From Spirochaetia bacterium (lineage in GTDB: Bacteria > Spirochaetota > Spirochaetia > SZUA-6 > Bin103), in the NCBI GenBank assembly GCA_965203055.1, contig OZ241863.1:3034545-3098544 (forward strand): 64,000 nt of DNA, in the 5' to 3' direction. Both the position numbers and the translations under genes were made by a program. A model generated the notes under the pieces. It was not told the origin of the DNA and searched no databases. It worked only from the letters and a program-made list of their open reading frames with translations. Of this stretch, positions 7,197 to 64,000 are shown piece by piece; the stretch's first letter is position 1; every line of letters begins with the position of its first letter.

Positions 7197-8384
7197 ATGA
7201 GCCACGTCAAAGAGCTCAAGCAACACAGCCGACAGGAAGCGCAGGCAGGGATGTCGGACAACGGCGCATCGGCAGGTCCGCGACCGCGGCTGAAGAGCGT
7301 CAAGGTCAAGGGGTTCCGGTCCATCAAGGAGATGGATTTGGAGATGCGGCCGCTCAACGTCTGCATCGGCGCCAACGGCGCAGGAAAGAGCAACCTCATC
7401 GCGTTCTTCAAGCTGATAAACGAAATGATGGGCGGACGACTCCAACAATACTTCGGCACGACCGGACGGGCCACCGCCAATCTGTACTTCGGACCCCGCA
7501 TAACTCCGCAAATGGAGGTGGAGCTGGACTTCGAGGTCGATAGAGGAACCAACGCGTACCGCATGAGGCTCGTTCACGCGGCCGATGACTCGGTGATCTT
7601 CGCCGATGAGTCGGTCTCCTTTCACCAGGAAGGCCATGATCTGCCTCAGCTAATGTCGTTGGGCGCCGGGCATCAGGAGACGCGTATCAGAGAGGACTCG
7701 ATATACGATCCTCTCCCGAATACCCTGAGGCACCTATTGAGTCACTGCCGCGTGTACCACTTCCACGATACGTCGCAGACTGCGCGCGTTCGCCAGTACT
7801 GTTACGTTGAGGACAGTAAGTGGCTCATGCCCGATGCAGCGAATCTTGCCGCCGTTCTCCATCGGCTGAAGACCGAGAACGAGCTGGTCTACCGGCAAAT
7901 CGTGAGGAACGTGAAACAGGTAGCGCCGTTCTTCGTGGACTTCGATCTCCAGCCTTCCGGGCGCAACAAGACCGACATCATTCTCAACTGGAGACATAGA
8001 GATTCCGATCTGGTATTTGGGCCGCATCAGCTATCCGATGGCACCTTGCGCGCAATCTGCCTGATCGCGCTGCTACGGCAGCCACACGAGGACTTGCCGT
8101 ACCTGATCGTGGTTGACGAGCCGGAGCTCGGTTTGCACCCGCATGCGCTCGACATGATCGCTTCGTTTTTTCAAGCCGCGAGCGAGCACGCCCAAGTGCT
8201 CATCAGCACGCAGTCCAGCGCGTTCGTCGACGCCTTCGATCCCGAGGACATCGTGGTGGTCGAACGAGACTGCGAAGCCACGACATTCACGCGACCCGAC
8301 GCCGAGAAACTCGGCGCGTGGCTGGAAGACTACTCGCTCGGCGAAGTATGGGAAAAGAACGTCATAGGCGGCGGACCGCACTGA
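7197..8384 (+). CDS. AAA_21/ABC-type (OLD/AbiLi/AriA-like) ATPase
   Basis: Walker A GANGAGKSN, signature-like LSDGTLRAI, Walker B LIVVDEPELGLHP. GGAG sits 7 nt before the ATG at 7197; alternative starts are 7158 (TTG) and 7251. The stop overlaps the next gene's start (TGATG). Confidence 0.8.
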   Translation: MSHVKELKQHSRQEAQAGMSDNGASAGPRPRLKSVKVKGFRSIKEMDLEMRPLNVCIGANGAGKSNLIAFFKLINEMMGGRLQQYFGTTGRATANLYFGPRITPQMEVELDFEVDRGTNAYRMRLVHAADDSVIFADESVSFHQEGHDLPQLMSLGAGHQETRIREDSIYDPLPNTLRHLLSHCRVYHFHDTSQTARVRQYCYVEDSKWLMPDAANLAAVLHRLKTENELVYRQIVRNVKQVAPFFVDFDLQPSGRNKTDIILNWRHRDSDLVFGPHQLSDGTLRAICLIALLRQPHEDLPYLIVVDEPELGLHPHALDMIASFFQAASEHAQVLISTQSSAFVDAFDPEDIVVVERDCEATTFTRPDAEKLGAWLEDYSLGEVWEKNVIGGGPH

Positions 8385-9070
8385 TGCCCCGGCTCCACCT
8401 GTTCGCCGAGGGCCGTACGGAACAGGTCTTCGCTACCCAGGTGCTGCAACCGCACTTGGCGAATTTCGACGTGTGGCTGCATAATCCGATGTTGGTGGCT
8501 CACGCGCGTAAGAAGGGCCGCACCCATCGCGGGGGAGGCCGGCATTTCGAGCCAATGCAGAACGACATCATGCGGCGCCTCAAGGAGGACGCCAACGCCG
8601 ACGTGTACTTTACGACGATGGTCGATCTGTACGCATTGTATAACGACTTTCCTGGGCGCTCGGAGGCAGAGAAGGTGCGTGCCGATCCCTATAAACGTGT
8701 GGCGTCGCTCGAAGAATCATGGCGGAAGAAGACCGCGGACAATCGCTTCATCCCTTACATTCAGTTGCACGAGTTCGAAGCGTACCTGTTTGCCGACGTG
8801 TCGAAGTTCGCCGAGTGGCAATGCCCGATCCCTGCAATCACCGCGTTGCAGAACGTGGTTAACGAGGCGAAGTCTCCGGAGAGGATCGACGACGGGCAAC
8901 ACACCGCGCCATCCAAGCGGATTATCGCCCGGTTCGGTAAGTACAAGAAATTGAAGACCACCATAGGCCCGCAGATGGCAGAGATGATCGGCTTGTCGGC
9001 CATCAGGGCGAAGTGCCCTCACTTCCACGAATGGATCAGGCGGTTGGAGCGGCTCGGAACCGGCGTGTAA
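8384..9070 (+). CDS. DUF4276-family protein (possible TOPRIM-like effector), translationally coupled to the ATPase
   Basis: About 228 aa starting MPRLHLFAEGRTEQVF. Its length and conserved N-terminal Glu resemble DUF4276/RloB/AbiLii-type partners of AAA_21 ATPases. This family call is from memory, not a search. Confidence 0.6.
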   Translation: MPRLHLFAEGRTEQVFATQVLQPHLANFDVWLHNPMLVAHARKKGRTHRGGGRHFEPMQNDIMRRLKEDANADVYFTTMVDLYALYNDFPGRSEAEKVRADPYKRVASLEESWRKKTADNRFIPYIQLHEFEAYLFADVSKFAEWQCPIPAITALQNVVNEAKSPERIDDGQHTAPSKRIIARFGKYKKLKTTIGPQMAEMIGLSAIRAKCPHFHEWIRRLERLGTGV

Positions 9071-9073
9071 CGG

Positions 9074-11899
9074 TCATGAACGCGCCGCGGCGGCGAGGAG
9101 GTCGTGGACGTCTTCGGGGGTTCTCGACACGGCGCATGACCAGCGGCCGAAGCCGCCGTGGTCGGTTACGGCGGCGCACCACTCCTTGAGATACGTGCGT
9201 TTGGCGCGGTCGCCGTCGCGGTCCAGGCCCTTCACTTCCATGACCAGCATGTCTCCGGTCGTGAGCCGGATCAGGAAGTCGGGGCGGTACTTGCGGACCA
9301 CGCCGCGGTGCACGTAGAGCACCTCGAAGCCGAGATGATCGTTCTTCACCCAGGCGTCGACCGCCGGGTGGTGGTCGAGGGCATAGGCTTCCGATGCCTC
9401 CCAGGCGCTGTCGTACACGCACAGGTTGACGTGGCTGCGATCCGTGTGTTCGCACGGCTTGCCGGTGTACCAGGTGAGCATGTCGCCGGTCGAGCGGATC
9501 GGGTGATCGCGGTCGAAGATCGGCGCCAGCCGTTCCGCGTTCTGGAAGCGGATCGCCTGCAGGAGATGCTGCACGACCTTGGTCATGTTGAGCATCAGCA
9601 TGAGCCGCCGCTTCACCGCGTCGCAGGCGAACGCCGCCGGTTCGATCACCACCCGGTCCGACTGGAGCAACTGCTCAGTGAGGCGCACCAGTTGCGCGAC
9701 GAGCGCGGCCCGGTTTCCGCGCCAATCCGGCCGCATCTCGTCGTAGACCTGCTGCGCGGTCTCGAACACGATGCTTTGCAGACGGCGCTTCCGCGCCAGA
9801 CGTTGCAGGTCGATCGTCGCGATCCTGGTCAGGTCGGGCTTGCCCTCCACGACCGGCGCCAGCTCCGCGACCCCGGCGGTCTGCGCCGCGGAGAGCGCCA
9901 GCGGTTCCACGTCGTCCCAGTCCACGGTCAGATGCGGTCTGAGCACGCGGTCGACGCGCACCACGTTTGGCCACGAAAGCGCGAACCGCTCCTTCTCCCG
10001 GACCGGTTCGATGGCGGTCTTCGGCAGCGGCGGCGGCGGCACCCCGGCCCGCGACTCGTGCGGCAGGAACGTGAACGGCACGCCGAAGACGTTCACGTAC
10101 TCCGGCTCCAGCAGGCCGGTTTCGTCGCTGACGTCGTAGGCGGTGCGGCGCAGCCCGCGGCCGATCACCTGTTCGCACAGCAACTGGCTGGCGAAGGCGC
10201 GCAGGCCCATGATGTGGGTCACGGTCTTGGCGTCCCACCCCTCGGACAGCATGCCGACCGAGATCACGTTCTGTATCCGTTCGCCGGGACCGCCGGCGCG
10301 GCCCACCGTATCGACCTGCCGGCGCAGCAGTTCGGCCCGCTGCCGGGCGTTCAGCCGGCGCCTTTGGCCCGCTTGACCGCCTGCCTCGTCCTGCGCGCCG
10401 GGACCGCCGGCGTCCGCGCCATCTTCGCCGACGGCCGCCAACGGCTCCGCGGCGGCCTCGGCTTCGGCCAGCGTCTTCGAGTCGATATGCAGCGTGCGCT
10501 CGGGATCGCACAGCTCCGCGATGCGGATGCTGCCGCGCGCGAACGCGTGCCGGACGCGCGCCGCGGTCTCGGTGCGGTTGGCGACGGTGATCATCGCCGG
10601 CGGCGTCGGGAACCCCAGCGCCGCCCACTGCCGGGCGGTCTCGCGCCAGTCGTACCCCAGGAAGTAGTAGCCGTTCAGCACCAGGTCCGGCAGCGGGTCG
10701 GTAGGCGCGGCCCGGCGGTTCAGGTCGTCCCTTACCTCCGGGTCGTTGTAGATGTGGTAGAAGCGGGAGCGGTAGGTCCGCGCGTCGGGCGCCGCATCGT
10801 CGCGCACCACCACGCGCGGCGTCTTGACCAGACCCGCCTCGATGGCGTCGTTCAATCCGAAGTCGCTCACGATCCAGTCGAACAACGCCTCCTCGGAGCT
10901 GCTCCTGCCGGACGGCACGAACGGCGTGGCGGAGAAGTCGTAGCAGCGCAGGATGCCGCGCGCGCGGTGGATGCGGTCGAGGCCGCCGATCCACTTGGTG
11001 GCGGTTTCCAGGTCGGCCTTGGCGATGCCCCTGGTCGCGGACTGTTCGGAGATGCGCCAGGCGTGGTGCGCTTCGTCGTTGATGACCAGCAGGTCGCGGG
11101 CCGCGGCGAGGTCGCCGAGTACCGCGCGGACGTAGGCTTCGTCGCTCACGGCGCCGCGCTTGTCGACGCTGCGCCGCCGCGCGACCTGCGCCTCGGTCTC
11201 CCAGTTGAGCGCGTGCCAGTTGCGGACCACGACCCGGCCCAGGCGCAGCTTGTCGAGCAGCGCGGACGGGACGATGCGGAACTGCCGGTAGTAGTTGTCG
11301 GGGTGCGGCGGATCGAGGACCGCCAGCCGGCTCTTGACGGTGAGGCCGGGCGCGACCACCAGGACGTTGCGGGAGAACCGGCGGTCCTGCGGATAGGCGG
11401 CCTTGTTCAGCACCTGCCAGGCGATGACCATCGCCATGACCACGGTCTTGCCGGTGCCGGTCGCCATCTTGGCGCACAGCCGGGGGAATGCGCCGCCGTC
11501 GCCGGGAACGTCGATGCCCACCCGGTCGGCGGCCGGCGCCTCGCGCAGCCACATCAGGGTCTCCACCGCCTCGAGCTGGCAGAAGAAGAACCGGCGCGAA
11601 TCGAACTCCTCCGGGTCGGTCCAGTGCGCGAGCAGCCGCCGGGTCACGGTGGAGGCGCCGGGGTAGCCGGCGGTCCGCCATGCCTTGACGCGCGGGCGGA
11701 TGGCGTTGACCAGCGGAATCTCGACCGTGACGCCCGGATCGTCGAACGCCCGCGAGTCGGGCGAAGCGATGACGTATCCCGCCGGCCGGCGGCCCGGCGC
11801 CAGGTCGAACAGCCGCGTCGCCCGGTCGTACCGCCAGTGCCGCGCCGGCTCCTCATACGGCGAGTTGACCGTCAGCCGGTCGATGGTGGTTTGCGCCAC
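9074..11899 (-). CDS. res: type III restriction endonuclease Res subunit (SF2 helicase + C-terminal PD-(D/E)xK)
   Basis: 941 aa with ATGTGKT (Walker A) and INDEAHH (DEAH box). C-terminal nuclease-like motif DMLVMEVKG. Directly downstream of mod and the nucleotidyltransferase. Confidence 0.85.
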   Translation of the reverse strand: MAQTTIDRLTVNSPYEEPARHWRYDRATRLFDLAPGRRPAGYVIASPDSRAFDDPGVTVEIPLVNAIRPRVKAWRTAGYPGASTVTRRLLAHWTDPEEFDSRRFFFCQLEAVETLMWLREAPAADRVGIDVPGDGGAFPRLCAKMATGTGKTVVMAMVIAWQVLNKAAYPQDRRFSRNVLVVAPGLTVKSRLAVLDPPHPDNYYRQFRIVPSALLDKLRLGRVVVRNWHALNWETEAQVARRRSVDKRGAVSDEAYVRAVLGDLAAARDLLVINDEAHHAWRISEQSATRGIAKADLETATKWIGGLDRIHRARGILRCYDFSATPFVPSGRSSSEEALFDWIVSDFGLNDAIEAGLVKTPRVVVRDDAAPDARTYRSRFYHIYNDPEVRDDLNRRAAPTDPLPDLVLNGYYFLGYDWRETARQWAALGFPTPPAMITVANRTETAARVRHAFARGSIRIAELCDPERTLHIDSKTLAEAEAAAEPLAAVGEDGADAGGPGAQDEAGGQAGQRRRLNARQRAELLRRQVDTVGRAGGPGERIQNVISVGMLSEGWDAKTVTHIMGLRAFASQLLCEQVIGRGLRRTAYDVSDETGLLEPEYVNVFGVPFTFLPHESRAGVPPPPLPKTAIEPVREKERFALSWPNVVRVDRVLRPHLTVDWDDVEPLALSAAQTAGVAELAPVVEGKPDLTRIATIDLQRLARKRRLQSIVFETAQQVYDEMRPDWRGNRAALVAQLVRLTEQLLQSDRVVIEPAAFACDAVKRRLMLMLNMTKVVQHLLQAIRFQNAERLAPIFDRDHPIRSTGDMLTWYTGKPCEHTDRSHVNLCVYDSAWEASEAYALDHHPAVDAWVKNDHLGFEVLYVHRGVVRKYRPDFLIRLTTGDMLVMEVKGLDRDGDRAKRTYLKEWCAAVTDHGGFGRWSCAVSRTPEDVHDLLAAAARS

Positions 11900-11911
11900 T
11901 ACCCCGGTTCC

Positions 11912-12220
11912 CTACTCATAGATGGTCTCTGCCGACTCCAGTATCGCCCGGCGGCGCAGGTGATTGCGGCTGCGCTCGACGCCGCGGCGGCTGACGAGAT
12001 CGACGTCCCGTCCGAATAGCGAGCGGAGTTCTTCCTCCATTTGGTGCAGGTCGAACAGCGTGTGGCGTGCGCTTTCGTCCAGGCTGACCAGCACGTCGAC
12101 GTCGCTTTCGGGTCCGAAGTCTTCGCGGAGCACCGAGCCGAACAGCGCGAGCTCGACCACGTTCCAGCGCTTGCAGAACTCGGCGAGCGCGGCGCGGTCC
12201 AGCGGTATCGCCTCGATCAT
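11912..12220 (-). CDS. MNT/MntA-type minimal nucleotidyltransferase (Pol-beta fold), nested between mod and res
   Basis: 102 aa with the core NTase motif LFGSVLREDFGPESDVDVLV. It is 8 nt downstream of the mod stop and 10 nt upstream of the res ATG. No HepT/DUF86 partner was found nearby. Confidence 0.8.
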   Translation of the reverse strand: MIEAIPLDRAALAEFCKRWNVVELALFGSVLREDFGPESDVDVLVSLDESARHTLFDLHQMEEELRSLFGRDVDLVSRRGVERSRNHLRRRAILESAETIYE

Positions 12221-12230
12221 GTCGTCTCGG

Positions 12231-14810
12231 TCATGGCCGTGACGAACCGTTGAGCGGGATCACCTTCAGGCTTTCGATGCCGCGGTCGTCGACGATCTTG
12301 ACCGCGGCCCGCTCGTGGGCGCCCGGCGCGAACGGCAGGGAGACGGTGCCGTGGTAGGCGGCGATCAACCGCTCGTCGATCTCGGTGCGGAGGCTGCGGG
12401 CGAGGCGCTTCCAGCCGTCGCGGGGGGAACCGGCCATGGGGAAGAAGACCTGGCGCGGAAACAGGCTGCGGCCGTCGTAGTCCGGGTCCAGCATCCACAA
12501 GGCGATGCGGTCGCCGCCGCCCGATTCGAGGCCGCCGGTGCGGGTGTTGTAGTAGTCGAACCCGTGCACGGCGACGCGCAGCTTGCCGGCGTGCTCGCCC
12601 GCCTCGATCCGCTCGACTTCGACTTCCGGCTGGCCGATCAGCCAGAAGCTCTCGTTGCCGGCGCGCTTGCGCTTGAGGTCGTCGGTCAGCAGGTCGGCGT
12701 TCATCTGCGCCTTGAGCAGGGTGACGCTCGGCCAGTTGGTCTCGTCGATGTCCTTGGCGGCTTCCGGGTCGAACTGGAAGGCGGCGAATACCAGGACGGT
12801 CGGCCGCGGCACCAGCGTCAGCGATTCCTCCAGGGCGCGGGTTACCTGGCGCTGCTCCAGCGGCGCGTGGTCGGGGCCGAACGAGACCACCGCCCGTTGC
12901 GCGTGATAGGCGGTGCCGGTTTCGCGGACGCGGTCCGCCCCGGAGGAGTCCGGGCGCGTGTCGCCCTCGGCGTGCAGCCAGCGGGTGCCGGGCAGCGGCT
13001 CGACCCGCGCGAAGGAGATGCGCTGGCCGGCCTTGCCGCGGATGCCGGTCTTCAGCAGCTCGTCGCGCCAATCGCCCTGCCGCAGCGTCTCGCCGGAGCG
13101 CGCGATCGACTCGTCAGCCGGCTGCTGCGGCGCTTCCAGCTCGTCGAGCGGCTGAACGGTTGGCGCGGGGACCGCCTCGACGGTGAAGGGGCCGGTGACG
13201 CGCGCCTTGCGCCGGTCCGGTTCCGGCTGGTCGTAGAGGATGGTCTCGACGGGCGGCTCGTCGTAGCCCAGGATTCTTGGCGAAACGGTGGCGACGCTGC
13301 GGTAGCGGAGCCCTGAGCCGATCCCTTCGTCGGGATGGGCCAGCTCGTAGTAGTCGAAGTTCGCGGTCATCAGCCGCTGGCGGGCGATGGCGACGGCCAC
13401 GCGCGAGGTGTCGCAGGTGATCCACCGGCGGCCCCACTGCTCCGCGACGTACGCGGTGGTGCCGGAACCGCAGGTCGGGTCGAACACCAGATCGCCGGGA
13501 TCGGTCGTCATGAGGATGCAGCGCTGAATCGCCTTGGCGGCGGTCTGTACGACGTACCGCTTGTCGGTGGGGGACATCGGCGCGGCCCAGATGTTGTTGA
13601 TGCGGCGCCCGGGCACTTCGTCTTCGTACCGCTTCCACATGAGCGAAGATTGCCCTTCCAGCGCTTCCAGCCGTCCCAACTCGGCCAGTCGATCCATACC
13701 GGCCGCGGAAATCGCCCAGTGGCGATCTCGACCACAACGAAAGACTCGTCCGTTCCATTCGTACGGTTCGGAACGCCCGGTCGTGGAGACACCCTGCGAA
13801 TCGAGCGGCATGCGCCGGTAGATACGTGCCCTTTTCGGAAGATTCTCGTCCGGGTCGAAACACTCTTCGGGCGTCGGTTTACGACAATGGCCGTCCGGCA
13901 ACTCGACCATGACGTGCCAACTGAAGGATTCGATCACCTCGGCGCGCGTGAGCAGCTCGTACAACTGGCGGTACTTGGTATGCTTCCGGTCCTTGGCGTA
14001 CCACAACAGATAGTCGGCGACCTCCGACAACGTCGTCGTCGAACTGGCGCCGGTCGTGGCGTACGAAATCGTCGCCATCCGGTTTTCGGCGCCGAAGATC
14101 TCGTCCATGACGAGGCCGGCGCGGTGCACGTTCTCGGGACCGATCTGCACGAAGCAGCTTCCGCTCTCGTGCAGCAACTCGCGCGCCAGCAGCAGGCGGT
14201 CGCGGAGATAGGCGAGATAGGAGTGGATGCCGAGCTCCCAGGTATCGCGGAAGGCGCGGATCTGCTCCGGTTCGGACGTCAGGTCCGCGTCCCGGCCGTC
14301 GGTGACCTCGCGCCGGTTCACGAACGGCTGGAAGTTGGAGCCGTAGCGGATGCCGTAGGGCGGGTCGAGGTAGACCGTCTGCACCCGCCCGCCGAGCCCT
14401 TCCTTCTCCAACAGGCTGTTCATCACCAGCAGGCTGTCGCCGGCGATCAGGCGGTTGCTCCAGTTATGCCGGTGGCGGTAGAATTCGATCGCCTGTCGGA
14501 TCGGCGGGTTCTCCTCGGGCGCGTCGAACAGCGAGCGCTGCCCCTCCGCGCCGTTGCGCCGGCGCACCGCCTCGACCACGGTGCGCGGGTCGATGCGCTC
14601 GTGCACGTGCAGCGAGACCGTCGGCACCGTGAACGAGGTGTGCTCGGCCTTCCCCGCCCAGTCGAGCCGCGGCTCCAGGTGCGGATCGTAGGCGTAGGCC
14701 GCCGCCCCCGCGTCCCGGTCGGTCTCCGGCGTCACCAGCCCCACCGGCGGATTGTTCGCCCGCTCCTCGGTATGGGCGTAGCTCTCGATCTCCCGCTTGC
14801 TCTTCGCCAT
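12231..14810 (-). CDS. mod: type III RM Mod subunit (N6-adenine/N4-cytosine DNA methyltransferase)
   Basis: 859 aa with motif IV DPPYGIRY and FxGxG-like motif I DPTCGSGTT. The N-terminus MAKSKREIE... is homologous to the second Mod at 57289. Confidence 0.85.
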   Translation of the reverse strand: MAKSKREIESYAHTEERANNPPVGLVTPETDRDAGAAAYAYDPHLEPRLDWAGKAEHTSFTVPTVSLHVHERIDPRTVVEAVRRRNGAEGQRSLFDAPEENPPIRQAIEFYRHRHNWSNRLIAGDSLLVMNSLLEKEGLGGRVQTVYLDPPYGIRYGSNFQPFVNRREVTDGRDADLTSEPEQIRAFRDTWELGIHSYLAYLRDRLLLARELLHESGSCFVQIGPENVHRAGLVMDEIFGAENRMATISYATTGASSTTTLSEVADYLLWYAKDRKHTKYRQLYELLTRAEVIESFSWHVMVELPDGHCRKPTPEECFDPDENLPKRARIYRRMPLDSQGVSTTGRSEPYEWNGRVFRCGRDRHWAISAAGMDRLAELGRLEALEGQSSLMWKRYEDEVPGRRINNIWAAPMSPTDKRYVVQTAAKAIQRCILMTTDPGDLVFDPTCGSGTTAYVAEQWGRRWITCDTSRVAVAIARQRLMTANFDYYELAHPDEGIGSGLRYRSVATVSPRILGYDEPPVETILYDQPEPDRRKARVTGPFTVEAVPAPTVQPLDELEAPQQPADESIARSGETLRQGDWRDELLKTGIRGKAGQRISFARVEPLPGTRWLHAEGDTRPDSSGADRVRETGTAYHAQRAVVSFGPDHAPLEQRQVTRALEESLTLVPRPTVLVFAAFQFDPEAAKDIDETNWPSVTLLKAQMNADLLTDDLKRKRAGNESFWLIGQPEVEVERIEAGEHAGKLRVAVHGFDYYNTRTGGLESGGGDRIALWMLDPDYDGRSLFPRQVFFPMAGSPRDGWKRLARSLRTEIDERLIAAYHGTVSLPFAPGAHERAAVKIVDDRGIESLKVIPLNGSSRP

Positions 14811-54637: not shown

Positions 54638-56146
54638 ATGACACCCGCTGATCTGGAAGTCCTCATCCAGCAGGGCGAAGGCACGACGCTCGAATTCAAG
54701 GAAGCGGTGTCGTCGTCGTTCGCGCGGGAGCTCGTGGCGCTGGCCAACACCGTCGGCGGGAAGATTTTGCTAGGTGTACGGGACGATCATTCCATCGTCG
54801 GGATCCGGGACGCCAACGAGCTGCGCGCCCGACTCCAGGGCCTTGCCCGCAACTGCGATCCTCCGGTGAAGGTGCGCGTGGAGCCGGTCGGCAACGTGCT
54901 GGTGGTCCACGTACGGGAGAGCGACGCCAAACCGGTGCAGTGCAGCGACGGGTTCTTCAGTCGCCAAGGCGCGGTAACGCAGAAGCTGAACCGAAACGAG
55001 ATCCGCGACTTCTTCCGGGTCGAAGGGGCGATCCGGTTCGACTTGGCGGTTTGCCCCCGGTTCCGCTATCCGGAGGACTTCGACCGCGAGAAGTACGACC
55101 GGTGGGTAGGTTACTCCGGCATCACCGGACGGCCGCCGGTGGAGGACACTCTGGTCAACATCGAGGCGGCCGAGCGGGCTGGCGACCGGCTGCTGTTCCG
55201 CAACGCCGGCGTGCTGTTCTTCGCCCGGAACGTGCGGCACTTCTTCCCGGAGGCATATATCACCTGTCTGTTGGGCCGGGGGACCGACAAGGTTCACATT
55301 CTGGATCGCAAGGACTTCGCCGGGGGGACCGTGGCCGACATCGAGGAAGCCATGCGCTTCATCGAGCGCAATACCCGCACCGCCTACCGGATCGAGGGCC
55401 TGCGCCGGGAAAACGTCCCGGAGTACCCGATGAACGCGCTGCGCGAGGCGATCACCAACGCGGTCATGCATCGCGACTGGTTCTACAACGGCACCAACGT
55501 GTTCGTGGAGCTCTACGCCGACCGCATCGAGGTGATCAGTCCCGGCAGCCTGCCCCCCGGCCTGACCGTTGCCGAGCTGGGGCGCCGGAGCGTGCGGCGC
55601 AACCCGCTCATCTCCGACCTGCTCCACCGCATCGAGTTCATCGAGATGGCCGGCACCGGCATCCGGCGCATCCGGGAGGAAGCGCGGGCGCGCCGCTGCC
55701 CGGAGCCGACGTTCGAGGCCAACAGCTTCGTGACCGTCACCTTCCGGCCCAACCCCGAGGTGCGGGCGGCGACCGGCGATGATGGGACTACCGGGGAAGT
55801 CACCGGGGATGTTACCGGGGTAGTTACGCCGCAGGAGACGCATCAAACCCCTTCCCGGGCAACCACCGGGGAAGTCACCGGGGATGTTACCGGGGAAGTC
55901 ACCGGGGAAGTCGCGGCGGTTGTCCGGCTGCTGCGAGCGATGGCCGGCGACATGACCAGGCAGCATCTCCAGGAGGCGCTTGGCCTGAAGCACGAGGACC
56001 ACTTCCGCAGTGCGTACCTGCAGCCCGCTCTGCGCGCCGGCCTGGTAGAAATGACCATCCCCGACAAGCCGCGCAGCCGCAGCCAGCGCTACCGGCTGAC
56101 GCCCGCCGGCAGCCGCTACCTGAGACGAACGGAGGAGACCCCGTAG
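54638..56146 (+). CDS. AlbA_2 (Schlafen-like) + HATPase_c_4 (RecG C-terminal-like) putative DNA-binding / ATP-binding regulator
   Basis: The N-terminus TLEFKEAVSSSFARELVALANTVGGKILLGV is typical of AlbA_2. The C-terminal HATPase_c_4-like region is ...NALREAITNAVMHRDW. A linker carries TGEVTGDVTG heptad-like repeats. Confidence 0.7.
   Translation: MTPADLEVLIQQGEGTTLEFKEAVSSSFARELVALANTVGGKILLGVRDDHSIVGIRDANELRARLQGLARNCDPPVKVRVEPVGNVLVVHVRESDAKPVQCSDGFFSRQGAVTQKLNRNEIRDFFRVEGAIRFDLAVCPRFRYPEDFDREKYDRWVGYSGITGRPPVEDTLVNIEAAERAGDRLLFRNAGVLFFARNVRHFFPEAYITCLLGRGTDKVHILDRKDFAGGTVADIEEAMRFIERNTRTAYRIEGLRRENVPEYPMNALREAITNAVMHRDWFYNGTNVFVELYADRIEVISPGSLPPGLTVAELGRRSVRRNPLISDLLHRIEFIEMAGTGIRRIREEARARRCPEPTFEANSFVTVTFRPNPEVRAATGDDGTTGEVTGDVTGVVTPQETHQTPSRATTGEVTGDVTGEVTGEVAAVVRLLRAMAGDMTRQHLQEALGLKHEDHFRSAYLQPALRAGLVEMTIPDKPRSRSQRYRLTPAGSRYLRRTEETP
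55789..55911 (+). repeat. 12-nt tandem repeats (accggggaagtc / accggggatgtt) in two blocks inside the AlbA_2/HATPase gene
   Basis: Block 1 is three units at 55789-55824 and block 2 is four units at 55864-55911. They encode TGEV/TGDV repeats. Confidence 0.8.
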
Positions 56147-56166
56147 ATGGCGAAGATCGATGGCCC
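56061..56166 (+). repeat. about 95 bp direct duplication (copy 1) of the AlbA_2-gene 3' end plus the mod 5' start; copy 2 is at 57221-57306
   Basis: gccgcagccagcgctaccgg...ccgctacctgagacgaa(c/t)ggaggagac(c/g)ccgtagATGgcgaagatcga occurs at both sites. Copy 1 ends the AlbA_2 gene and copy 2 immediately precedes mod #2. Confidence 0.8.
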
Positions 56167-56950
56167 GCGTACTATAGGTGCCACGGCGTCGCGCAGGCTC
56201 TCAGCCCCTCGCGTGGGATCGACGTTGCCGGTCCGTATCCGCCAAGGCCAGTTCCTCGACGGCGGCCATAGCACGCTCAGGACCGCTGGCTCGACCAGGG
56301 CCTGCGCGGGCGCGCAGCGGTCGGCGACGGCTTGCGCGGCGGCAGCTTCTCGCCGGTGTACGCGTCCCACTCGTTGCCGTCAGCGTCGGCCATGATAAAG
56401 CGGTCCTCGCGGCGCACCCTGCCGCTCGCGAGCGACTCCCGGACCCCTTCCGGCGTCAGCTCCCCGAGCGGGCGCCCGGAGTAGTCGCTGTCTACGGCTT
56501 GGGTTTCGTCGGCTTCTTCTTTCTGCTTGCCCATCTGCGACTCATCAGGAGCTTGTCATTGGCTTGCGCGATCGGCACGAACTCGTCATACGGCCACTGC
56601 CTGACCCGCAACACCCTGTTCTTTGTGGGTGAGCATCTTGTCGAGCTGCGCCTTTAGGACCGATGACCCGCTCCGCCACGCAATATACTGCGCATACGCC
56701 CGCGCCCACAACTCGGCCTCGTGGGTCAGGTAGGTATCGCCCTGCAGGAGCGCATACCTCTTGCTCTGCAGGATCGCCTTATGACCGCCTGCATCGTCCG
56801 AGTCGACTCCCGCTTAGACTCGAGGTCGTCTATTTCGGCGACGCCCTTCTTTGACATGCCCGACGTCAGTACGCGCCGGCGCGAGTGCCCGCCGGCGCGC
56901 AGCCTGGATGCCTGTTTGACTGATGATACCATGGCGAATACCATATAGCC

Positions 56951-57220
56951 GTGGTCATTACCATAGATCGCGACGGGCGCGTCGTAGTGCCGAAGCAGTT
57001 CCGTGACCGCTTCAACTTGGTTGCTGGTACGCAGTTGGAGATCGAAGCCGCAGGTGACGGGCTGAAGCTTCGTAAGGTCGTAAGCGAGCCGACGCTGGTT
57101 CGGAAGAAAGGGTTCCTGGTGCATCACGGCACTGCTCGTCCCGACATCGATATCGTCGAGTTCATCCGTGCCGAGCGCGACGCCCGCAGCCGTCATATTG
57201 CCACGGACACCACGGATTGA
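56951..57220 (+). CDS. AbrB/MazE/SpoVT-family antitoxin-like DNA-binding protein
   Basis: The N-terminus (V)ITIDRDGRVVVPKQFRDRFNLVAGTQLEIE is the swapped-hairpin AbrB signature. GTG start. An upstream TTGACT and three ACCATA/ATACCAT repeats suggest an autoregulated promoter. Confidence 0.65.
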   Translation: MVITIDRDGRVVVPKQFRDRFNLVAGTQLEIEAAGDGLKLRKVVSEPTLVRKKGFLVHHGTARPDIDIVEFIRAERDARSRHIATDTTD

Positions 57221-57288
57221 TGCGCAAGCCGCAGCCAGCGCTACCGGCCGGCCGCCGCTACCTGAGACGAATGGAGGAGACGCCGTAG

Positions 57289-59247
57289 ATGGCGAAGATC
57301 GACGTCACCCGGACCGAGCTGGTCTGGCCGGGCAAGTACAACGAAGACGGCACGCTCAATGAAGCGCCGCGCGTCAACCTGCCGTTCCAGGTCATCGAGA
57401 CCGTCAACGAGAGCCGCGCCACCCGCGAGGCGCGCAAGACGAAGGGCATGTCATTATTCGACGTGTACGAGGGCACCGAAGGCGATACCTTCGAGGAGGG
57501 TTGGCGGAACAAGCTGATCTGGGGCGACAATCTGCTGGTGATGGGCTCGCTCCTGGAGAAGTTCGCCGGAAAGATCGATCTGATCTACATCGACCCACCA
57601 TTCGCGACCGGAGCAGACTTCTCATTTACGGCGCCAATAGGAGAGTCCGGGGAAGAAGTGTTCAAGGCGCAATCTGCCATTGAGGAGAAAGCATATCGTG
57701 ATACATGGGGAAGTGGGCATTCATCTTATGTTTCCATGCTCCATGATCGCTTGATGCTTATACGAGAACTCCTTTCAAGTACCGGCAGCGTATATGTACA
57801 CATTGATCCCCGGGTAGACTATCTTGTCAGAGGTATTCTCGATGACGTATTCGGTCAAGAGTCATTTCGTAACGTCATTGTCTGGAAGCGAGACGTTGCA
57901 GGTAAAGGAGCCAAGAGAACCAGCAGTCAATGGCCACGAAATGCAGACACAATAATTTGGTATGGTAGGTCTCCGGCATCGTGGACGTTCGAACAACAGT
58001 ATGCGCAGTTGAGCGATGATCAGAAGAAACCATATCGATACCACGATTCGAACGGCCGTCGGTATAAGGCAGTTCAACTCGGTGACTACTCCGAAAGATC
58101 AATTGCAATTATGGTTCAGAAAGGGATGATTCATACTTCCTCCACTGGTAAGATGTATAAGAAATACTACTTGGATGAAGCTCGCTCGACAATCGACTGT
58201 ATTTGGACCGATATTCTTGGTTTTGGAACAAAGACCGCCTCGCACGAGATTCAAGGATTCCCTACTCAGAAGCCTGAGATGCTACTTGAACGTATTGTCG
58301 CTGCGTCATCCAAGAAGGGGGACCTCGTAGCCGACTTCTTCTGTGGTTCGGGAACTACCCTTGCCGTGGCCGAGAAGCTCGGGCGCCGCTGGATCGGCTG
58401 CGACCTGGGCCGCTGGGGAATACACGTCACCCGCAAGCGGCTACTTGGTATCGAAGACTGCAAGCCGTTCGAAATTCTGAATCTCGGCAAGTATGAACGG
58501 CAGTACTGGCAGGGCGCGACCTTCAGCGAACAAGGCTCCGAGCAGGCGCTCTACGAGTACCTCGCGTTCATCCTCAAGCTGTACGGCGCGCAACCGGTCG
58601 CCGGCATGGCGCACGTGCACGGCAAGAAGCATCGGGCCATGGTCCACGTCGGCGCGGTGGATGCGCCGGTGACTATCGACGAGATCGAACAGGCGGTCAA
58701 CGAATGCCAGCGGCTCCGCCAGAACGAGCTGCACGTGCTAGGTTGGGAGTGGGAGATGGGGCTGGCTGGCCCCAACAACGACCTGCGCAAGGGCGGATTG
58801 ATGCACGAATCGGCCAAGGCGCGCGGCGTCAAGCTCATCCTGCTGCAGATACCGCGCGAGGTGATGGAGCAGCAGGTGCGCGACGAGAACGACGTGCGCT
58901 TCTTCGAGCTGGCGTACCTGGAAGCGGCGGTCGAGACTCCGGATACGCTGACCGCGCAGGTGCGGCTCGAGGACTTCGTCATTCCCAACGACGAGCTGAT
59001 CCCGGACGAGGTGCGCGGCAAGGTCCGGCAGTGGTCCGATTACATCGACTACTGGGCGGTGGATTGGGACTTCCGCAACGACACCTTCATGCAGGGCTGG
59101 GTAACCTACCGCACGCGCAAGGAGCGCAGTCTGCCGCTCGCCTCCGATCCGCACCGCTACGAATCTCCCGGCACCTATCAGGTGCTGATCAAGGTAATCG
59201 ACATCTTCGGCAACGACACGTCGCAATGCTACCCGGTGACGGTATGA
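57289..59247 (+). CDS. mod: type III RM Mod subunit #2 (DNA methyltransferase) with a low-GC central target-recognition region
   Basis: Motif IV IDPPFATGADF, motif I FFCGSGTTLAVAEKLGRRWIGCDL. The N-terminus is homologous to Mod #1. 57660-58340 is about 45% GC while the flanks are about 68% GC. Confidence 0.85.
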   Translation: MAKIDVTRTELVWPGKYNEDGTLNEAPRVNLPFQVIETVNESRATREARKTKGMSLFDVYEGTEGDTFEEGWRNKLIWGDNLLVMGSLLEKFAGKIDLIYIDPPFATGADFSFTAPIGESGEEVFKAQSAIEEKAYRDTWGSGHSSYVSMLHDRLMLIRELLSSTGSVYVHIDPRVDYLVRGILDDVFGQESFRNVIVWKRDVAGKGAKRTSSQWPRNADTIIWYGRSPASWTFEQQYAQLSDDQKKPYRYHDSNGRRYKAVQLGDYSERSIAIMVQKGMIHTSSTGKMYKKYYLDEARSTIDCIWTDILGFGTKTASHEIQGFPTQKPEMLLERIVAASSKKGDLVADFFCGSGTTLAVAEKLGRRWIGCDLGRWGIHVTRKRLLGIEDCKPFEILNLGKYERQYWQGATFSEQGSEQALYEYLAFILKLYGAQPVAGMAHVHGKKHRAMVHVGAVDAPVTIDEIEQAVNECQRLRQNELHVLGWEWEMGLAGPNNDLRKGGLMHESAKARGVKLILLQIPREVMEQQVRDENDVRFFELAYLEAAVETPDTLTAQVRLEDFVIPNDELIPDEVRGKVRQWSDYIDYWAVDWDFRNDTFMQGWVTYRTRKERSLPLASDPHRYESPGTYQVLIKVIDIFGNDTSQCYPVTV

Positions 59248-59583
59248 ACGAGCTGCACCTTACGCCCGAGGAGAGCGCATGGTTGCGCGCATATCGGAGT
59301 CTGATACGTCGGCGGTACCCGGAAACGGTGGCGCGAATGCTCGTCTATGGTTCCAAGGCGCGCGGCGACGCCCACGCCGACAGCGACCTGGACGTTCTCA
59401 TCATCGTCCGGAACGACGCCGCCGACGAAGCGGGAGCTGCGCGGAATCGGCTACGATCTGGCGGCAACCTCCCACGCGGTGCCGTCGATCCTGGCGTATT
59501 CGCTGAAGGAATGGCAGGAACGGAGCGCACGGGGGTACCCGTTCCAACGCGCGGTCGAGCGCGACGGCGTGTCCGTCCTGTGA
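59244..59583 (+). pseudogene. MNT-type nucleotidyltransferase #2 between mod and res, carrying a +1 frameshift near 59425
   Basis: Frame A reads MNELHLTPEESAWLRAYRSLIRRRYPETVARMLVYGSKARGDAHADSDLDVLIIVRND. Frame B continues RELRGIGYDLAATSHAVPSILAYSLKEWQERSARGYPFQRAVERDGVSVL*. The ATG overlaps the mod stop (ATGA), and the res ATG lies 10 nt after frame B's stop. Confidence 0.65.
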
Positions 59584-59592
59584 AATCGGACG

Positions 59593-62364
59593 ATGGCTGA
59601 GTCGGTCGTTTCTTACGACCGGGACCTGCCGCAGATTGCCGGCCGTCTGCCGTGGGAGGCGCCGTGCTCCTGCCTGGTGAAGGACGACGCGGCGCGCACC
59701 GGCTGGCGCGAGGATCGTTCCGGGCGGCGCCCGAGCCAACTGCTGCTGGTGCCGAAGATTCGCGACGCGGTGGACTCATGGCGCGCGGCCGGGTACGACG
59801 GCGCGTCCGGCGTGACCAAGCGGCTGTTCGCGTACTGGTTCGAGGAGGATCACGAAGTCTCAGGCTTCGACGCGCCGTTCCGGTACTATTTCTGCCAGCG
59901 CGAGGCGATCGAGACACTGGCGTGGCTGGTGGAAATCGCCGGCAGGCGCGACGCGCTCGCGTTGATCCGGGACTACGGGACGATCTCCGTCACCGATCGG
60001 TTTCAGACCGCGATGGACGGCCGGCGGCAGCTTCGCCGTTATGTCCCGGAACTGGATAAGGACGTCGAGCAGGAGCTGCCGCCGGAGAACTTGCGCCGCT
60101 ACGCCCTCAAGCTGGCGACCGGCGCCGGCAAGACCTGGGTGATGGCGATGGCGGTCGTGTGGTCGCGCTTCCACCGGCTGCGCGTGGCAGACTCCGAACT
60201 CTCCACCAACTTCCTCATCGTCGCCCCCAACGTGATCGTCTATCAGCGGCTCGAAAGGGACTTCGCCAACAACAATATCTTCCACCGGTTGCCGCTGATC
60301 CCGCCGGAGTGGAAGGGCAGCTTCACCCAGAAAGTGATCCTGCGCGGCGAGGCCGCCGAACCCGCTCCGTCCGGGAATCTGTTTCTCACCAACATCCAGC
60401 AACTCTACGAGTCGCGCGACGATACCTGGACTCCCGCGAACCCCGTCGAGGCGCTATTGGGAGAGAAACCGGCGCAGGATCTCGCGGGGTCCGCCGGGCG
60501 TTCCATGCTGGAACGGGTCAAGTCGCTCCCCGATCTGGTGGTGATGAACGATGAGGCGCACCACGTGCACGACGAGGACCTGGCGTGGAGCAGGTCGCTG
60601 CTCGGCGTTCACGGTGGGCTGCCGCAGGGGGTCGGCGCCTGGCTCGACTTCTCGGCCACGCCCAAGGACCGGAACGGCATGTACTTCCCGTGGACGGTGT
60701 GCGACTACCCGCTGGCGCAGGCGGTGGAGGACCGGATCGTCAAGGCGCCGATCATCGTCACCAACGAGGACGACGCCGGGCAGCCGGCGCAAGACCCGGA
60801 GGGGGTGACGAAGGACAATGTCGCCGCCAAGTACGGCTACTGGCTGCAAGCCGCGGTACGGCGCTGGCAGGAGCACCGCGCCGCGTACGGCCCGCTCGGC
60901 ATCAAACCGGTGCTCTTCATCATGGCGGAGAAGAACGTCTACGCCGACGCGTTGGGCGAGTATCTCGTCACGACCGCAGGATTCAAGACGTCAGAGGTAC
61001 TGGTGATCCACACCGACACCACCGGCGAGGTGCGGAAGGGAGACCTGGAAAAGGCGCGGCAGGCGGCGCGCGACATCGACCGCCGCGGCAGCCGGATCAA
61101 GGCGATCGTGAGCGTGATGATGCTGCGCGAGGGCTGGGACGTGCGCAACGTGACGGTCGTGCTGGGGCTGCGGCCGTTCACCGCCAAGGCGGAGATCCTG
61201 CCGGAGCAGGTGATCGGGCGCGGGCTGCGGCTCATGACGCAGGTGAGCCCGGACCGCACGCAGACGCTGGAGGTGCTCGGCACGCGCAATCTGCTCAACG
61301 TGCTGCGCGAGCAACTGGAAGCCGAGGGAGTCGGCGTGGCCAGCACGGCGCAGGGTCCGCCGCCGCCGGTGACCATCGCACCGGTGCGGGAGCGGCTGGC
61401 GCACGACATCGCGATCCCCCTCACCAAGCCGAGTCTGACGCATGACTCCCGCAAGCTGTCGGAGCTCGACGTGCAGTCGCTCATTCCGATCTACGAATCG
61501 AACGATCTGGCGGAACCGGTGCGAATCACGATGCGGATGGAGTTCGCGACCACGGAGACCGAAGTCCATCAGGCGGCCTTGGCGCCGGAGGGGAGTCCGG
61601 CGCGGGAGCTCCTGGCCGGCATCGCCGGCGAGGTGAGCAAGCGGACCGGGCTCACCAACCGGTTCGCCGAGCTCTACCCGATCGTGCGGCGGTACGTGGC
61701 GGAGCGCTGCTTCGGCGGGCCGGTCGACGTGGAGGATTCCGGGATTCGATCGCACCTGACGCGGCTGGAACTGCGCGAAGGAATCGCCCGCTATCTGGCC
61801 GGGGCGATCGGCGAGCTCACCGTCGAACGCCGCTCGCTGCAGTTCGAGCGCACCGACTTCCGGCTGTCCGCTACCAGACCGTTCAGTTGGCGGCGCAATC
61901 TGCCGCCCCTCGAAGCCGACAAGACCGTGTTCAACTACGTGGCGACCTACAACGAGTTCGAGCGCAGCTTCGCCGAGTTCCTGGACCGCGCGGCCGACGT
62001 GCCGCGCTTCGCCGCGCTGGGCACCACCGATCAGGGCAGCTCCGGCACCGCGTTCCGCGTCGACTACCTGAAGGCGAGCGGCGCCATCGGCTTCTACTAT
62101 CCCGACTGGGTAGCCGTCCAGCAAACCGAAGACGGCGCCGAAGACGGCGAGGTGCACTGGATCATCGAAACCAAGGGCCGCGTCTGGGAAGGCACCGACC
62201 GGAAGGACGCCGCAATGCGCGAGTGGTGCCGGCGCGTGCACGACGCCGCCGGCATCGTCTGGCGCTACCTGCGCGTCAACCAAGCCGAGTTCCGCAAGCT
62301 CCCGCCCGACTCCCCGACCCTCAAGGCCCTGATCGCGCAACTCTCCGACGACGCCCTGTCTTGA
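59593..62364 (+). CDS. res: type III restriction endonuclease Res subunit #2
   Basis: LATGAGKT (Walker A), VMNDEAHH (DEAH box), C-terminal PD-(D/E)xK-like VHWIIETKG. 923 aa. Confidence 0.85.
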   Translation: MAESVVSYDRDLPQIAGRLPWEAPCSCLVKDDAARTGWREDRSGRRPSQLLLVPKIRDAVDSWRAAGYDGASGVTKRLFAYWFEEDHEVSGFDAPFRYYFCQREAIETLAWLVEIAGRRDALALIRDYGTISVTDRFQTAMDGRRQLRRYVPELDKDVEQELPPENLRRYALKLATGAGKTWVMAMAVVWSRFHRLRVADSELSTNFLIVAPNVIVYQRLERDFANNNIFHRLPLIPPEWKGSFTQKVILRGEAAEPAPSGNLFLTNIQQLYESRDDTWTPANPVEALLGEKPAQDLAGSAGRSMLERVKSLPDLVVMNDEAHHVHDEDLAWSRSLLGVHGGLPQGVGAWLDFSATPKDRNGMYFPWTVCDYPLAQAVEDRIVKAPIIVTNEDDAGQPAQDPEGVTKDNVAAKYGYWLQAAVRRWQEHRAAYGPLGIKPVLFIMAEKNVYADALGEYLVTTAGFKTSEVLVIHTDTTGEVRKGDLEKARQAARDIDRRGSRIKAIVSVMMLREGWDVRNVTVVLGLRPFTAKAEILPEQVIGRGLRLMTQVSPDRTQTLEVLGTRNLLNVLREQLEAEGVGVASTAQGPPPPVTIAPVRERLAHDIAIPLTKPSLTHDSRKLSELDVQSLIPIYESNDLAEPVRITMRMEFATTETEVHQAALAPEGSPARELLAGIAGEVSKRTGLTNRFAELYPIVRRYVAERCFGGPVDVEDSGIRSHLTRLELREGIARYLAGAIGELTVERRSLQFERTDFRLSATRPFSWRRNLPPLEADKTVFNYVATYNEFERSFAEFLDRAADVPRFAALGTTDQGSSGTAFRVDYLKASGAIGFYYPDWVAVQQTEDGAEDGEVHWIIETKGRVWEGTDRKDAAMREWCRRVHDAAGIVWRYLRVNQAEFRKLPPDSPTLKALIAQLSDDALS

Positions 62365-62420
62365 CGCGGACCGCTACCCGCCGAGTGGAGAAGATGGAGT
62401 CCTTGCCTTGCTTGGCGCTG

Positions 62421-63581
62421 TCACGGGCCGGCCGGGGCGGTTGCGAGGAAGTTGATGAAGCCGTCGAGGTCGCATACTACTTGGTGGTCGCGGGCCAGCC
62501 ACGGGCTGCGCCGGCAGATCAGGAACCGCCGGCTGGCGGCGATCAGGTCGGCGGCGGCGTTGAGGCGCTTCAGGTCGTCGAGTCCGGGGCGGGTGGTCAG
62601 CTTGACTTCGAGCGCCCACAGTTCCGTGCCGACGCGCAGCACCAAGTCGATTTCGCGCTGGTCGCTGGTGCGGAACGAGAATGCCTCGAACGGTCGTCCG
62701 GCGTGCCGCAAGGCCGTGAACACCTGGTCGATGACGAACCCCTCCCAACTGGCCCCGACCCACGGCTGATTCAGCAGCTCGCCGGCGCTGGCGCCAAGCA
62801 GCGCGTGCAGCAGCCCGCTGTCGCGCCAGTAGACGCGCGGGCGCTTGACGATGCGCTTGCGGATGTTGGCGTGGAACGGGAGCAGGCGGCGGATCAGGAA
62901 CGCGCCTTCGAGGTAGTCCAGGTAGCTGTTGACCGTGTGGTAGGAGAGGGCCAAGCTCTTGCCGATCTGGGTGGCGTTCCACTCCTGGCCGTTGGTCGCC
63001 GCCAGCATCTGCAGCAGGCGCCGCGTGGTCGGCGCGCGGGCGGGCAGCCCCCAGTTCGGCAGGTCGCGCTGCATCAGCAGGTCCAGGTAATCGTGCTGCC
63101 ACTGGGGAAAGCCGCGCCCGGTCAGCACGCCGCCGTCCGCATACCCGCCGCAGAGCCACAGCCGTTCCCGCTGCCCGGGAGCGGCCAGTTCCGACCATGA
63201 CAACGGCGCCAGTTCCACCACCGAGAGTCGGCCGGCCAGCGACTCCGAGACCTGGGTCATGAGCGCCGGCGAGACCGATCCCAGCAGCAGGAACCGCCCC
63301 ATGCGCCGGCGGTCGTCGTCGATGGCGCCGCGCAGGCGCGGAAACACCTCCGGCCACGCCTGCGCCTCGTCCAGCACGATCAGTTCGCGTCCGCTGACCA
63401 CCGTGTCCCACGTCAGGTCCAGGCGCAGCCGGTCGCTCTCCTGCTCCAGGTCGAAGTAGACGCCGCCGAGCGACCGGGCCAACGTAGTCTTGCCGCACTG
63501 GCGCGGCCCCACCAGCGCCGCCGCCGGATAGTTGCGGAGCCGCGCGAGCAGCACCGGCGTCAGGCCCCGTTCCACCATCAC
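62421..63581 (-). CDS. AAA ATPase with DUF4143 domain (second copy of this family)
   Basis: Walker A GPRQCGKTTLA and Walker B LIVLDEAQ. Confidence 0.75.
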   Translation of the reverse strand: MMVERGLTPVLLARLRNYPAAALVGPRQCGKTTLARSLGGVYFDLEQESDRLRLDLTWDTVVSGRELIVLDEAQAWPEVFPRLRGAIDDDRRRMGRFLLLGSVSPALMTQVSESLAGRLSVVELAPLSWSELAAPGQRERLWLCGGYADGGVLTGRGFPQWQHDYLDLLMQRDLPNWGLPARAPTTRRLLQMLAATNGQEWNATQIGKSLALSYHTVNSYLDYLEGAFLIRRLLPFHANIRKRIVKRPRVYWRDSGLLHALLGASAGELLNQPWVGASWEGFVIDQVFTALRHAGRPFEAFSFRTSDQREIDLVLRVGTELWALEVKLTTRPGLDDLKRLNAAADLIAASRRFLICRRSPWLARDHQVVCDLDGFINFLATAPAGP

Positions 63582-63604
63582 TACGACATTTTAGAAATCG
63601 ATTT

Positions 63605-63889
63605 CTATTTTGCAAGATTGGGGGCGCGGAGCTGGTGCAGCCGGTAGTCCTTCTCGATGCCGAGCCAGATTTTGGCATCGACGCCGAGCACCATCTCGAA
63701 CTGGAGGGCGGTCTTTGGCTCGATCGGGGCCTTCCCGGCGATGATCTCGCTGATGAGCTTCGCGGACCGGCCGCACCGACGTGCGAACTCGGCTTGAGAG
63801 ACGCCGTGCGCCTCCAGGCGTTCCTCCAGCACCAGCCCGGGCGGAACCGCATAGTCAGGCCGGTACTCATTGATCGCTGCCGTCGCCAT
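63605..63889 (-). CDS. higA: HigA-family HTH (XRE) antitoxin
   Basis: GVSQAEFARRCGRSAKLISEIIAGKAPIEPKTALQFEMVLGVDAKIWLGIEKDYRL matches the HigA antidote family. GGAGGA RBS upstream. Confidence 0.7.
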   Translation of the reverse strand: MATAAINEYRPDYAVPPGLVLEERLEAHGVSQAEFARRCGRSAKLISEIIAGKAPIEPKTALQFEMVLGVDAKIWLGIEKDYRLHQLRAPNLAK

Positions 63890-63892
63890 GTC

Positions 63893-64000
63893 CTCCTCTA
63901 TCCCGGACCGTGGCCAGGATAGCTGAGAATGGCTGTTCCGGGTCGAGGGCGCGCAGGAACGGGGCGCATGGCAGGCACAGCACGCCGTGTTCGCGGAGCC
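63893..64000 (-). CDS. possible HigB/RelE-like toxin, 3' end only (5' end beyond the window)
   Basis: An open frame ends with TAG at about 63896, immediately before the HigA RBS. Only about 35 codons are visible, so no family motif can be confirmed. Confidence 0.25.

Follow-up and report, generated by a model that had tools for sequence, protein, structure and literature searches.

A type III restriction-modification operon with a probable remnant of an embedded MNT-HEPN pair in a Spirochaetia bacterium

The mod2-NTase2-res2 locus

We analysed a stretch of 64,000 nucleotides from contig OZ241863.1 of a Spirochaetia bacterium (hereafter the window; G+C content of about 68%) and describe here a type III restriction-modification (R-M) operon, system 2, in which a gene for a minimal nucleotidyltransferase (MNT), termed NTase2, is located between the methyltransferase gene mod2 and the restriction gene res2. 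The three genes are on the plus strand in the order mod2, split MNT gene, res2, and the ATG of NTase2 at 59244 overlaps the stop codon of mod2 (ATGA). Positions, gene order and overlap had been given in an earlier model-generated reading of the letters (the original prediction), with which the coordinates of the open reading frames (ORFs) agreed. All features with their coordinates, including those of a second operon of the same layout (system 1), are summarized in Table 1.

The reading frames of mod2 and res2 are both uninterrupted. The translation of mod2 holds the motifs DPPF (as IDPPF) and FCGSG, and that of res2 holds a Walker A motif (ATGAGKT), DEAH and PD...ETK; the match of Res2 to RE_endonuc (E-value of 1e-3) is under the Pfam cut-off. 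Identity with the corresponding proteins of related cassettes is 56-72% for Mod2 and 70-82% for Res2. The two genes lie on one strand with mod first and are linked via overlapping short ORFs. Judged by sequence, the pair is a type III R-M system in its Mod, its Res and its gene order, and it shares with systems of the EcoP15I type the mod-then-res order, a beta-class N6-adenine methyltransferase and a Res made of an SF2 helicase and a PD-(D/E)xK nuclease. It differs from them by the extra gene between mod and res and by a conserved AlbA_2-family gene upstream.

The frame of NTase2 switches between positions 59426 and 59428. Frame A encodes MNELHLTPEESAWLRAYRSLIRRRYPETVARMLVYGSKARGDAHADSDLDVLIIVRNDAAD and then runs into nonsense (MNELH...VRNDAAD), and frame B encodes KRELRGIGYDLAATSHAVPSILAYSLKEWQERSARGYPFQRAVERDGVSVL followed by a stop codon, ending at 59583 (KRELRGIGYDL...GVSVL and stop). 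Once joined, the two parts match PF01909 and PF18765. Homologues of NTase2, which form a large family, are mostly 110-114 amino acids (aa) long and are encoded in a single frame. The closest of them is encoded on L002, a contig of a separate metagenome project that is 97% identical in nucleotides to window positions 59042-59620; its MNT (P0001) is intact, comprises 113 aa, is 95% identical to NTase2 and reads DAADVKRELRG across the break. Aligned with blastn, L002 has GACGTGAAGCGG where the window has GAC--GAAGCGG (over a shorter span, GACGTGAAG against GAC--GAAG), and the context of the deleted site is not a homopolymer. The original prediction had rightly described an NTase gene split across two frames and had named decay of this copy as one possibility, which the analysis supports; it had also attributed the split to one extra nucleotide near 59425, and here L002 and the intact homologues of 111-113 aa indicate instead that 2 nt are missing. 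The frameshift strips 51 residues from the product, and with them 13 of the 27 alignment columns that are invariant in the family. Over the whole gene, NTase2 and the MNT of L002 differ by four synonymous and four non-synonymous changes, with one synonymous and no non-synonymous change downstream of the shift.

Table 1. Features of systems 1 and 2 and of the region upstream of mod2 (window positions).
Feature	Position	Strand	Evidence or content
res1	9074-11899	-	ResIII
HepT deletion scar, system 1	11899-11919	-	6-codon mini-ORF ATG AGT AGG GAA CCG GGG TAG
NTase1, intact MntA-type MNT, 102 aa	11912-12220	-	PF01909 E 6.7e-17; weak NCBIfam MntA_antitoxin match
mod1	12231-14810	-	PF01555
AlbA_2/HATPase_c_4/Fic-like_C gene, 502 aa	54638-56146	+	Pfam; conserved upstream neighbour of mod in the cassette family
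Duplicated junction, copy 1	56075-56172		AlbA_2 3' end, TAG, ATGGCGAAGATCGA (mod start)
Insert of about 1.05 kb between AlbA_2 and mod	56173-57226		MazE/AbrB-type antitoxin gene at 56951-57220 (PF04014), no toxin gene
Duplicated junction, copy 2	57227-57314		AlbA_2 3'-end remnant, then the real mod start
mod2, type III N6-adenine DNA methyltransferase	57289-59247	+	652 aa; PF01555 E 1.3e-38; PADLOC MTase_III E 9.4e-120
MNT codons 1-61 and one stray base	59244-59427	+	PF01909 E 7e-9; catalytic GS...DxD YGSKARGDAHADSDLDV
Frameshift, 2-nt deletion (TG or GT) relative to L002	59426-59428	+	blastn alignment of window and L002
MNT codons 63-113 and stop, now out of frame	59428-59583	+	13 of 27 invariant family columns
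HEPN deletion scar, system 2	59580-59600	+	6-codon mini-ORF GTG AAA TCG GAC GAT GGC TGA; compared with L008, L011, L016
res2, type III restriction subunit	59593-62364	+	923 aa; ResIII E 2.8e-13; PADLOC REase_III E 6e-17

The NTase2 family and the HEPN deletion scars

We searched one genome per GTDB species with the alignment of the NTase2 family, yielding 80 loci, and assigned the class of HEPN in each by a hidden Markov model (HMM) search of the translated segment downstream of the MNT gene. The scan was anchored on the MNT, so that loci in which the MNT went first are invisible to it. A full-length HEPN gene directly follows the MNT gene in 38 of the 80 loci, a truncated or split one in 24 (some of the split genes may be long-read assembly errors), and HEPN is absent in 18. 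Mod upstream and Res downstream, 56-82% identical to those of the window, flank the MNT in 17/80 loci, where the corresponding counts are 10, 5 and 2; neither gene flanks it in 57/80. Since homologous Mod and Res flank members of the family in at least 17 of 80 loci, the mod-NTase-res layout is not a chance juxtaposition. Relatives carry HEPN behind the MNT, and at most loci the pairs occur with no R-M genes around them. NTase2 is therefore predicted to be the antitoxin (MNT) member of a mobile MNT-HEPN pair, for which the site between mod and res is a frequent location but not the only one.

A complete cassette is present at locus L005, a 6.87-Mb Vicinamibacterales metagenome-assembled genome whose NTase is 70% identical to NTase2. 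The genes there are, in order, a UvrD-like helicase-nuclease, Mod (626 aa), NTase (111 aa), HEPN (PF05168, 144 aa, with the Rx6H motif kept), Res (949 aa) and PIN. In both L005 and L011, neighbouring genes of the arrangement Mod-MNT-HEPN(PF05168)-Res-PIN abut or overlap, and in 10 of the 17 loci flanked by Mod and Res, Mod is directly preceded by a homologue of the AlbA_2 gene (72-82% identity). The full order of the cassette family is (UvrD-like)-AlbA_2-Mod-MNT-HEPN-Res-(PIN), with the pair joined to mod and res by overlapping stop and start codons. At another locus, L079, Mod directly adjoins Res and the MNT-HEPN pair lies upstream of both. The PIN-domain gene follows Res in L005 (11601-12029) and in about 11 other loci, and the window has none; in L005 it starts at 11601, the last base of Res, with no separate antitoxin gene visible. 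The Res proteins of PIN-bearing loci have a C-terminal extension of about 25 aa that is missing from the Res of the window.

To define the HEPN scar of system 2, we compared its junction with those of L008, L011 and L016, which hold a full HEPN gene between the same flanks. In such relatives the HEPN start overlaps the MNT stop (5' junction ...CTx TGA ATC GTG ACG...) and the HEPN stop overlaps the res ATG (3' junction ...GCG GAC GAT GGC TGA). The window reads CTG TGA AAT CGG ACG ATG GCT GAG, which leaves a mini-ORF that shares bases with the MNT stop (GTGA) and with the start of res (ATGGCTGA) and retains the first HEPN codons, the last three codons and both overlaps. A GACG microhomology, present at both ends of HEPN in L008, would explain the deletion. 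After the 2-nt deletion, translation continues in the mini-ORF frame, and the broken MNT ORF (59244-59600) therefore still terminates at the scar TGA, in overlap with the ATG of res, so the coupling of res to upstream translation should survive the frameshift. HMMs built from relatives found no HEPN or HepT elsewhere in the 64-kb window, where a tblastn search with the HEPN of L005 gave only noise, and no HEPN domain concealed in the Mod, Res or AlbA_2 protein was detected with Pfam.

Among the other HEPN-less cassettes, L002 bears the same scar as the window, L007 and L170 have the MNT fused in frame to the HEPN tail ATKADDG, L015, L017 and L024 have a common 29-codon HEPN remnant, and two further scars, different from these and from each other, are found in L020 and L036. 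These are at least five distinct scars and, since they differ between HEPN-less cassettes, the toxin appears to have been lost independently at least five times in the cassettes of this family.

System 1 and the surrounding genes

System 1 is located on the minus strand. Its Mod and Res are just 27-35% identical to those of system 2, and the original report of two diverged mod-NTase-res layouts in one window thus stands. NTase1 holds the motif GS-x(9-10)-DxD as FGSVLREDFGPESDVDV and matches PF01909 and PF18765. The original prediction had proposed to align the two NTases. Both match PF01909, and the match between their profiles (hhalign) has a probability of 93.7% over 34 columns only, around the GS...DxD core. 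On the Pfam, hhalign and PDB sequence matches, NTase1 and NTase2 are classed here as different MNT subfamilies that share the Pol-beta nucleotidyltransferase fold.

Relatives of NTase1 were collected by a metagenome scan, yielding 80 loci, most of which have an ORF of 110-120 aa overlapping the MNT stop. All eight such downstream ORFs that were tested (8/8) are HepT (PF01934). The arrangement Mod-MntA-HepT-Res is present at two loci, L098 and L123, whose Mod and Res share 59-75% identity with the system 1 proteins; L109 has MntA-HepT-Res on a contig cut upstream, and L092 has Mod-MntA-HepT on a contig cut downstream. Comparison with the MntA-HepT-Res junctions of L098, L109 and L123 defines the scar of system 1, which overlaps the NTase1 stop and the GTG start of res1 and recurs identically in the close relatives L086 and L087. 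Because 6-codon scars stand in both systems where relatives hold HEPN or HepT, each of the two type III operons of this genome is predicted to have lost the toxin of its embedded MNT-HEPN pair, the two pairs being unrelated. In a further relative, L088, Mod and Res share 86-88% identity with their system 1 counterparts and have a CAP12-PCTIR TIR-domain gene (2130-2936) between them; because this gene is in the slot, the mod-res junction seems to behave as a cargo site accepting different effectors. The MNT of L088, 87% identical to NTase1, sits beyond a DDE transposase. The mod gene of L086 (197-2779) was called as two ORFs of 392 and 448 aa, which is either a frameshift or an assembly indel.

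Upstream of mod2, the two junction copies listed in Table 1 are direct repeats (D2 and D7, 87-88% identical), and both map to the single AlbA-mod junction of relatives such as L016. We found no homologue of the insert of about 1.05 kb between them in related loci, where AlbA_2 directly adjoins mod; the stretch may be an insertion or the leftover of recombined tandem cassettes. Within the AlbA_2/Fic-like_C gene, two blocks of 12-nt tandem repeats (similar to ACCGGGGAAGTC; 55787-55926) encode runs of TGEV/TGDV that could form a length-variable linker. Two minus-strand genes downstream of res2 encode an AAA_14/DUF4143 ATPase (62421-63581) and an HTH_3 (HigA-like) protein (63605-63889). Genes for an AAA_21/AAA_15 ATPase and a DUF4276 protein (7158-9070) follow res1 closely but are encoded on the other strand, and a SNF2/DUF3670 helicase gene is at 2472-5189. 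With its two R-M systems, ATPase/DUF4276 and helicase genes, the region looks like a defence island.

Known systems and interpretation

The MntA antitoxin adenylylates HepT, blocking its RNase toxicity (PMC7641770). In the HepT/MntA type VII toxin-antitoxin (TA) system of Shewanella oneidensis (SO_3166/SO_3165; PMC7641770, PMC4621449), the gene for the same kind of small Pol-beta-fold MNT, with its GS...DxD motif, lies 5' of a HEPN RNase gene and overlaps it, and in its relatives the NTase of system 1 is likewise paired with HepT (PF01934). Unlike HepT/MntA, both copies of the window are without a toxin, the partner of NTase2 is a PF05168 HEPN rather than HepT/DUF86, and the setting of the pairs is a type III R-M operon. 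Against the NCBIfam model NF047752 (MntA_antitoxin, cut-off of 60 bits), the repaired NTase2 scored 26.8 bits and NTase1 40 bits; the two are best described as related subfamilies of MntA and not as equivalogs. Both NTases have the fold and motif of an MNT antitoxin, both lack a downstream HEPN gene, and only NTase1 has an intact frame. The closest solved relatives, by sequence match only, are in PDB 9xbd, where a HEPN domain protein is in complex with a nucleotidyltransferase domain protein (E-values of 6e-10 for the NTase2 family and 1e-13 for its HEPN partner), which contains a HEPN where the window has none.

HEPN genes within R-M operons have been proposed to serve as a second, suicidal line of defence (PMC3710099), and the same paper states, only in a general way, that HEPN-T (PF05168) genes cluster with R-M operons (PMC3710099, Table 1). 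PrrC-EcoprrI and other HEPN proteins in R-M operons (PMC3710099, PMC3632139) represent the same design of a suicidal RNase module within a restriction operon, with the same proposed role. PrrC belongs to a type Ic system and is restrained by R-M proteins, whereas here the system is of type III and the module is a two-gene TA pair whose toxin is gone. An embedded HEPN is present in at least 10 homologous cassettes and deleted in the window, the locus of which is a degenerate derivative of an R-M operon with an embedded HEPN-MNT module, a kind already known. In PADLOC, both NTases of the window match PDC-S09, a single MNT (E-values of 5e-16 and 5e-23), and the HEPN of L005 matches PDC-M05B of PDC-M05 (MNT + HEPN); PDC-S09 and PDC-M05 are candidates defined by enrichment near defence genes and are silent on mechanism. 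In the literature that we searched for MNT/HEPN together with type III R-M, there was no specific description of the cassette or of repeated toxin excision.

We consider, with a probability of about 0.72, that system 2, a type III R-M operon, belongs to a cassette family in which an MNT-HEPN pair is embedded, and that here HEPN was deleted and the orphan MNT then broken. In full cassettes the MNT would nucleotidylate the HEPN RNase toxin and thereby silence it, by analogy with HepT/MntA, and the pair would be an addiction or second-line abortive-infection module beside restriction. The first step would have been an almost exact deletion of the HEPN gene, with a scar that keeps the translational-coupling overlaps, so that res should stay expressed; the second would have been the 2-nt deletion at codon 62 that broke the orphan MNT. 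System 1 would have undergone the first step only, with HepT deleted and MntA intact. As Mod and Res show no sign of damage, the locus most likely still functions as a plain two-subunit type III system carrying a dead antitoxin gene, and none of the role of the pair would remain in the window.

Some points weigh against this reading. An assembly error at 59426-59428 is an unlikely but real concern, the source looking like a long-read metagenome assembly and the related contig L001 containing two 1-nt indels. The MNTs of HEPN-less relatives are under purifying selection, with ratios of non-synonymous to synonymous substitution rates (dN/dS) of 0.07-0.25, and the view of the MNT as a useless remnant fits poorly with this.

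If the frameshift were a sequencing or assembly artefact, the MNT would be intact and system 2 would be a HEPN-less Mod-MNT-Res operon like L002. The contig that bears most on this is L001 (11 kb, labelled 3x, ENA assembly ERZ26167708), which matches window positions 55469-64000 with no mismatches and carries the same 2-nt deletion. It has extra 1-nt insertions at 6886 and 7547 (window 62354 and 63014) that break res and the AAA gene, one of them making Res a 1223-aa read-through, and because of these two insertions L001 can be regarded as a separate, poorer assembly. They also gauge the indel error of these long-read assemblies. The resemblance of the assemblies of this data set to long-read metagenome assemblies, two obvious 1-nt errors in the 8.5 kb of L001, the lack of accumulated substitutions past the shift relative to L002 and the conservation of the orphan MNT in relatives all speak for an artefact. 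Against it, a 2-nt loss outside a homopolymer is not the usual long-read error, the window shares the identical lesion with the 3x contig, a separate assembly (although the read sets of the two contigs may not be independent), and records of the 78-aa frame-B product, as of Mod2, exist for two contigs, of which the longer has 4,557,819 bp (4.56 Mb). Given its presence on two assembled contigs and the absence of changes accumulated downstream, the frameshift is probably real and recent, and we hold an artefact to be unlikely.

A second alternative is that an MNT kept between mod and res after the loss of the toxin has a function of its own, the toxin-less Mod-MNT-Res arrangement being a selected state that arose repeatedly. 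The dN/dS of the MNT is 0.07-0.12 among L015, L017, L020 and L024; among L015, L017 and L024, which must have diverged after the HEPN deletion because they have one scar in common, that of Res is 0.15-0.18 and that of Mod 0.10-0.21. Between L170 and L007 the values are 0.25 for the MNT and 0.14 for Res. The same pair has a dS of 0.26 in the MNT and of 0.085 in the adjacent Res, a gap that may point to recombination between the MNT and paralogues or to gene conversion. Orphan MNTs may neutralise HEPN toxins encoded elsewhere or on mobile elements, or may nucleotidylate another target such as Res or a phage protein. We regard a separate function as doubtful; if it were true, the three-gene state would have arisen at least five times in the family of system 2 and once more in that of system 1, by deletions that preserve coupling.

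The original prediction had taken the recurrence of the tripartite layout as a sign that the NTase is an integral third component of type III systems. Such a component could for example be a regulator that nucleotidylates Res or Mod and is kept irrespective of HEPN. The same slot is filled by two unrelated MNT families within one genome, orphan MNTs remain under purifying selection past the loss of HEPN, translational coupling to mod and res is preserved, and PDC-S09, a listed defence candidate, consists of a single MNT gene, all of which would suit such a component. However, relatives carry intact pairs between mod and res (with PF05168 in the family of system 2 and with HepT in that of system 1), most loci (57/80) have the MNT without flanking Mod or Res, Mod and Res are adjacent in L079 with the pair elsewhere, the TIR gene occupies the slot in L088, and in the window the MNT is broken and Mod and Res are intact. 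Loci without R-M genes show a lost or degraded HEPN as often (33/57) as loci flanked by both Mod and Res do (7/17), so that orphan MNTs are not specific to R-M. An integral role is thus quite improbable, and since both toxins are deleted in the window, the three-gene appearance corresponds to a four-gene design minus its toxin. Programmed ribosomal frameshifting to a full-length MNT, for which nothing speaks beyond the two overlapping frames, was rejected, as there is no slippery sequence at GACGAAGCGG and hundreds of homologues, including the 97%-identical L002, use one frame.

With the deletion of HEPN followed by the breakage of the MNT as our preferred reading, what appears to be a three-component type III system would in fact be a type III operon in which the stump of an MNT-HEPN toxin-antitoxin pair remains. 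The comparison documents a widespread cassette of soil bacteria, (UvrD)-AlbA_2-Mod-MNT-HEPN-Res-(PIN), which is an elaboration and not a new principle. Its toxin appears to have been excised cleanly and repeatedly, with mini-ORF scars that would keep res translationally coupled, and orphan antitoxins that persist under purifying selection turn the way in which defence operons shed their toxic parts into a testable question.

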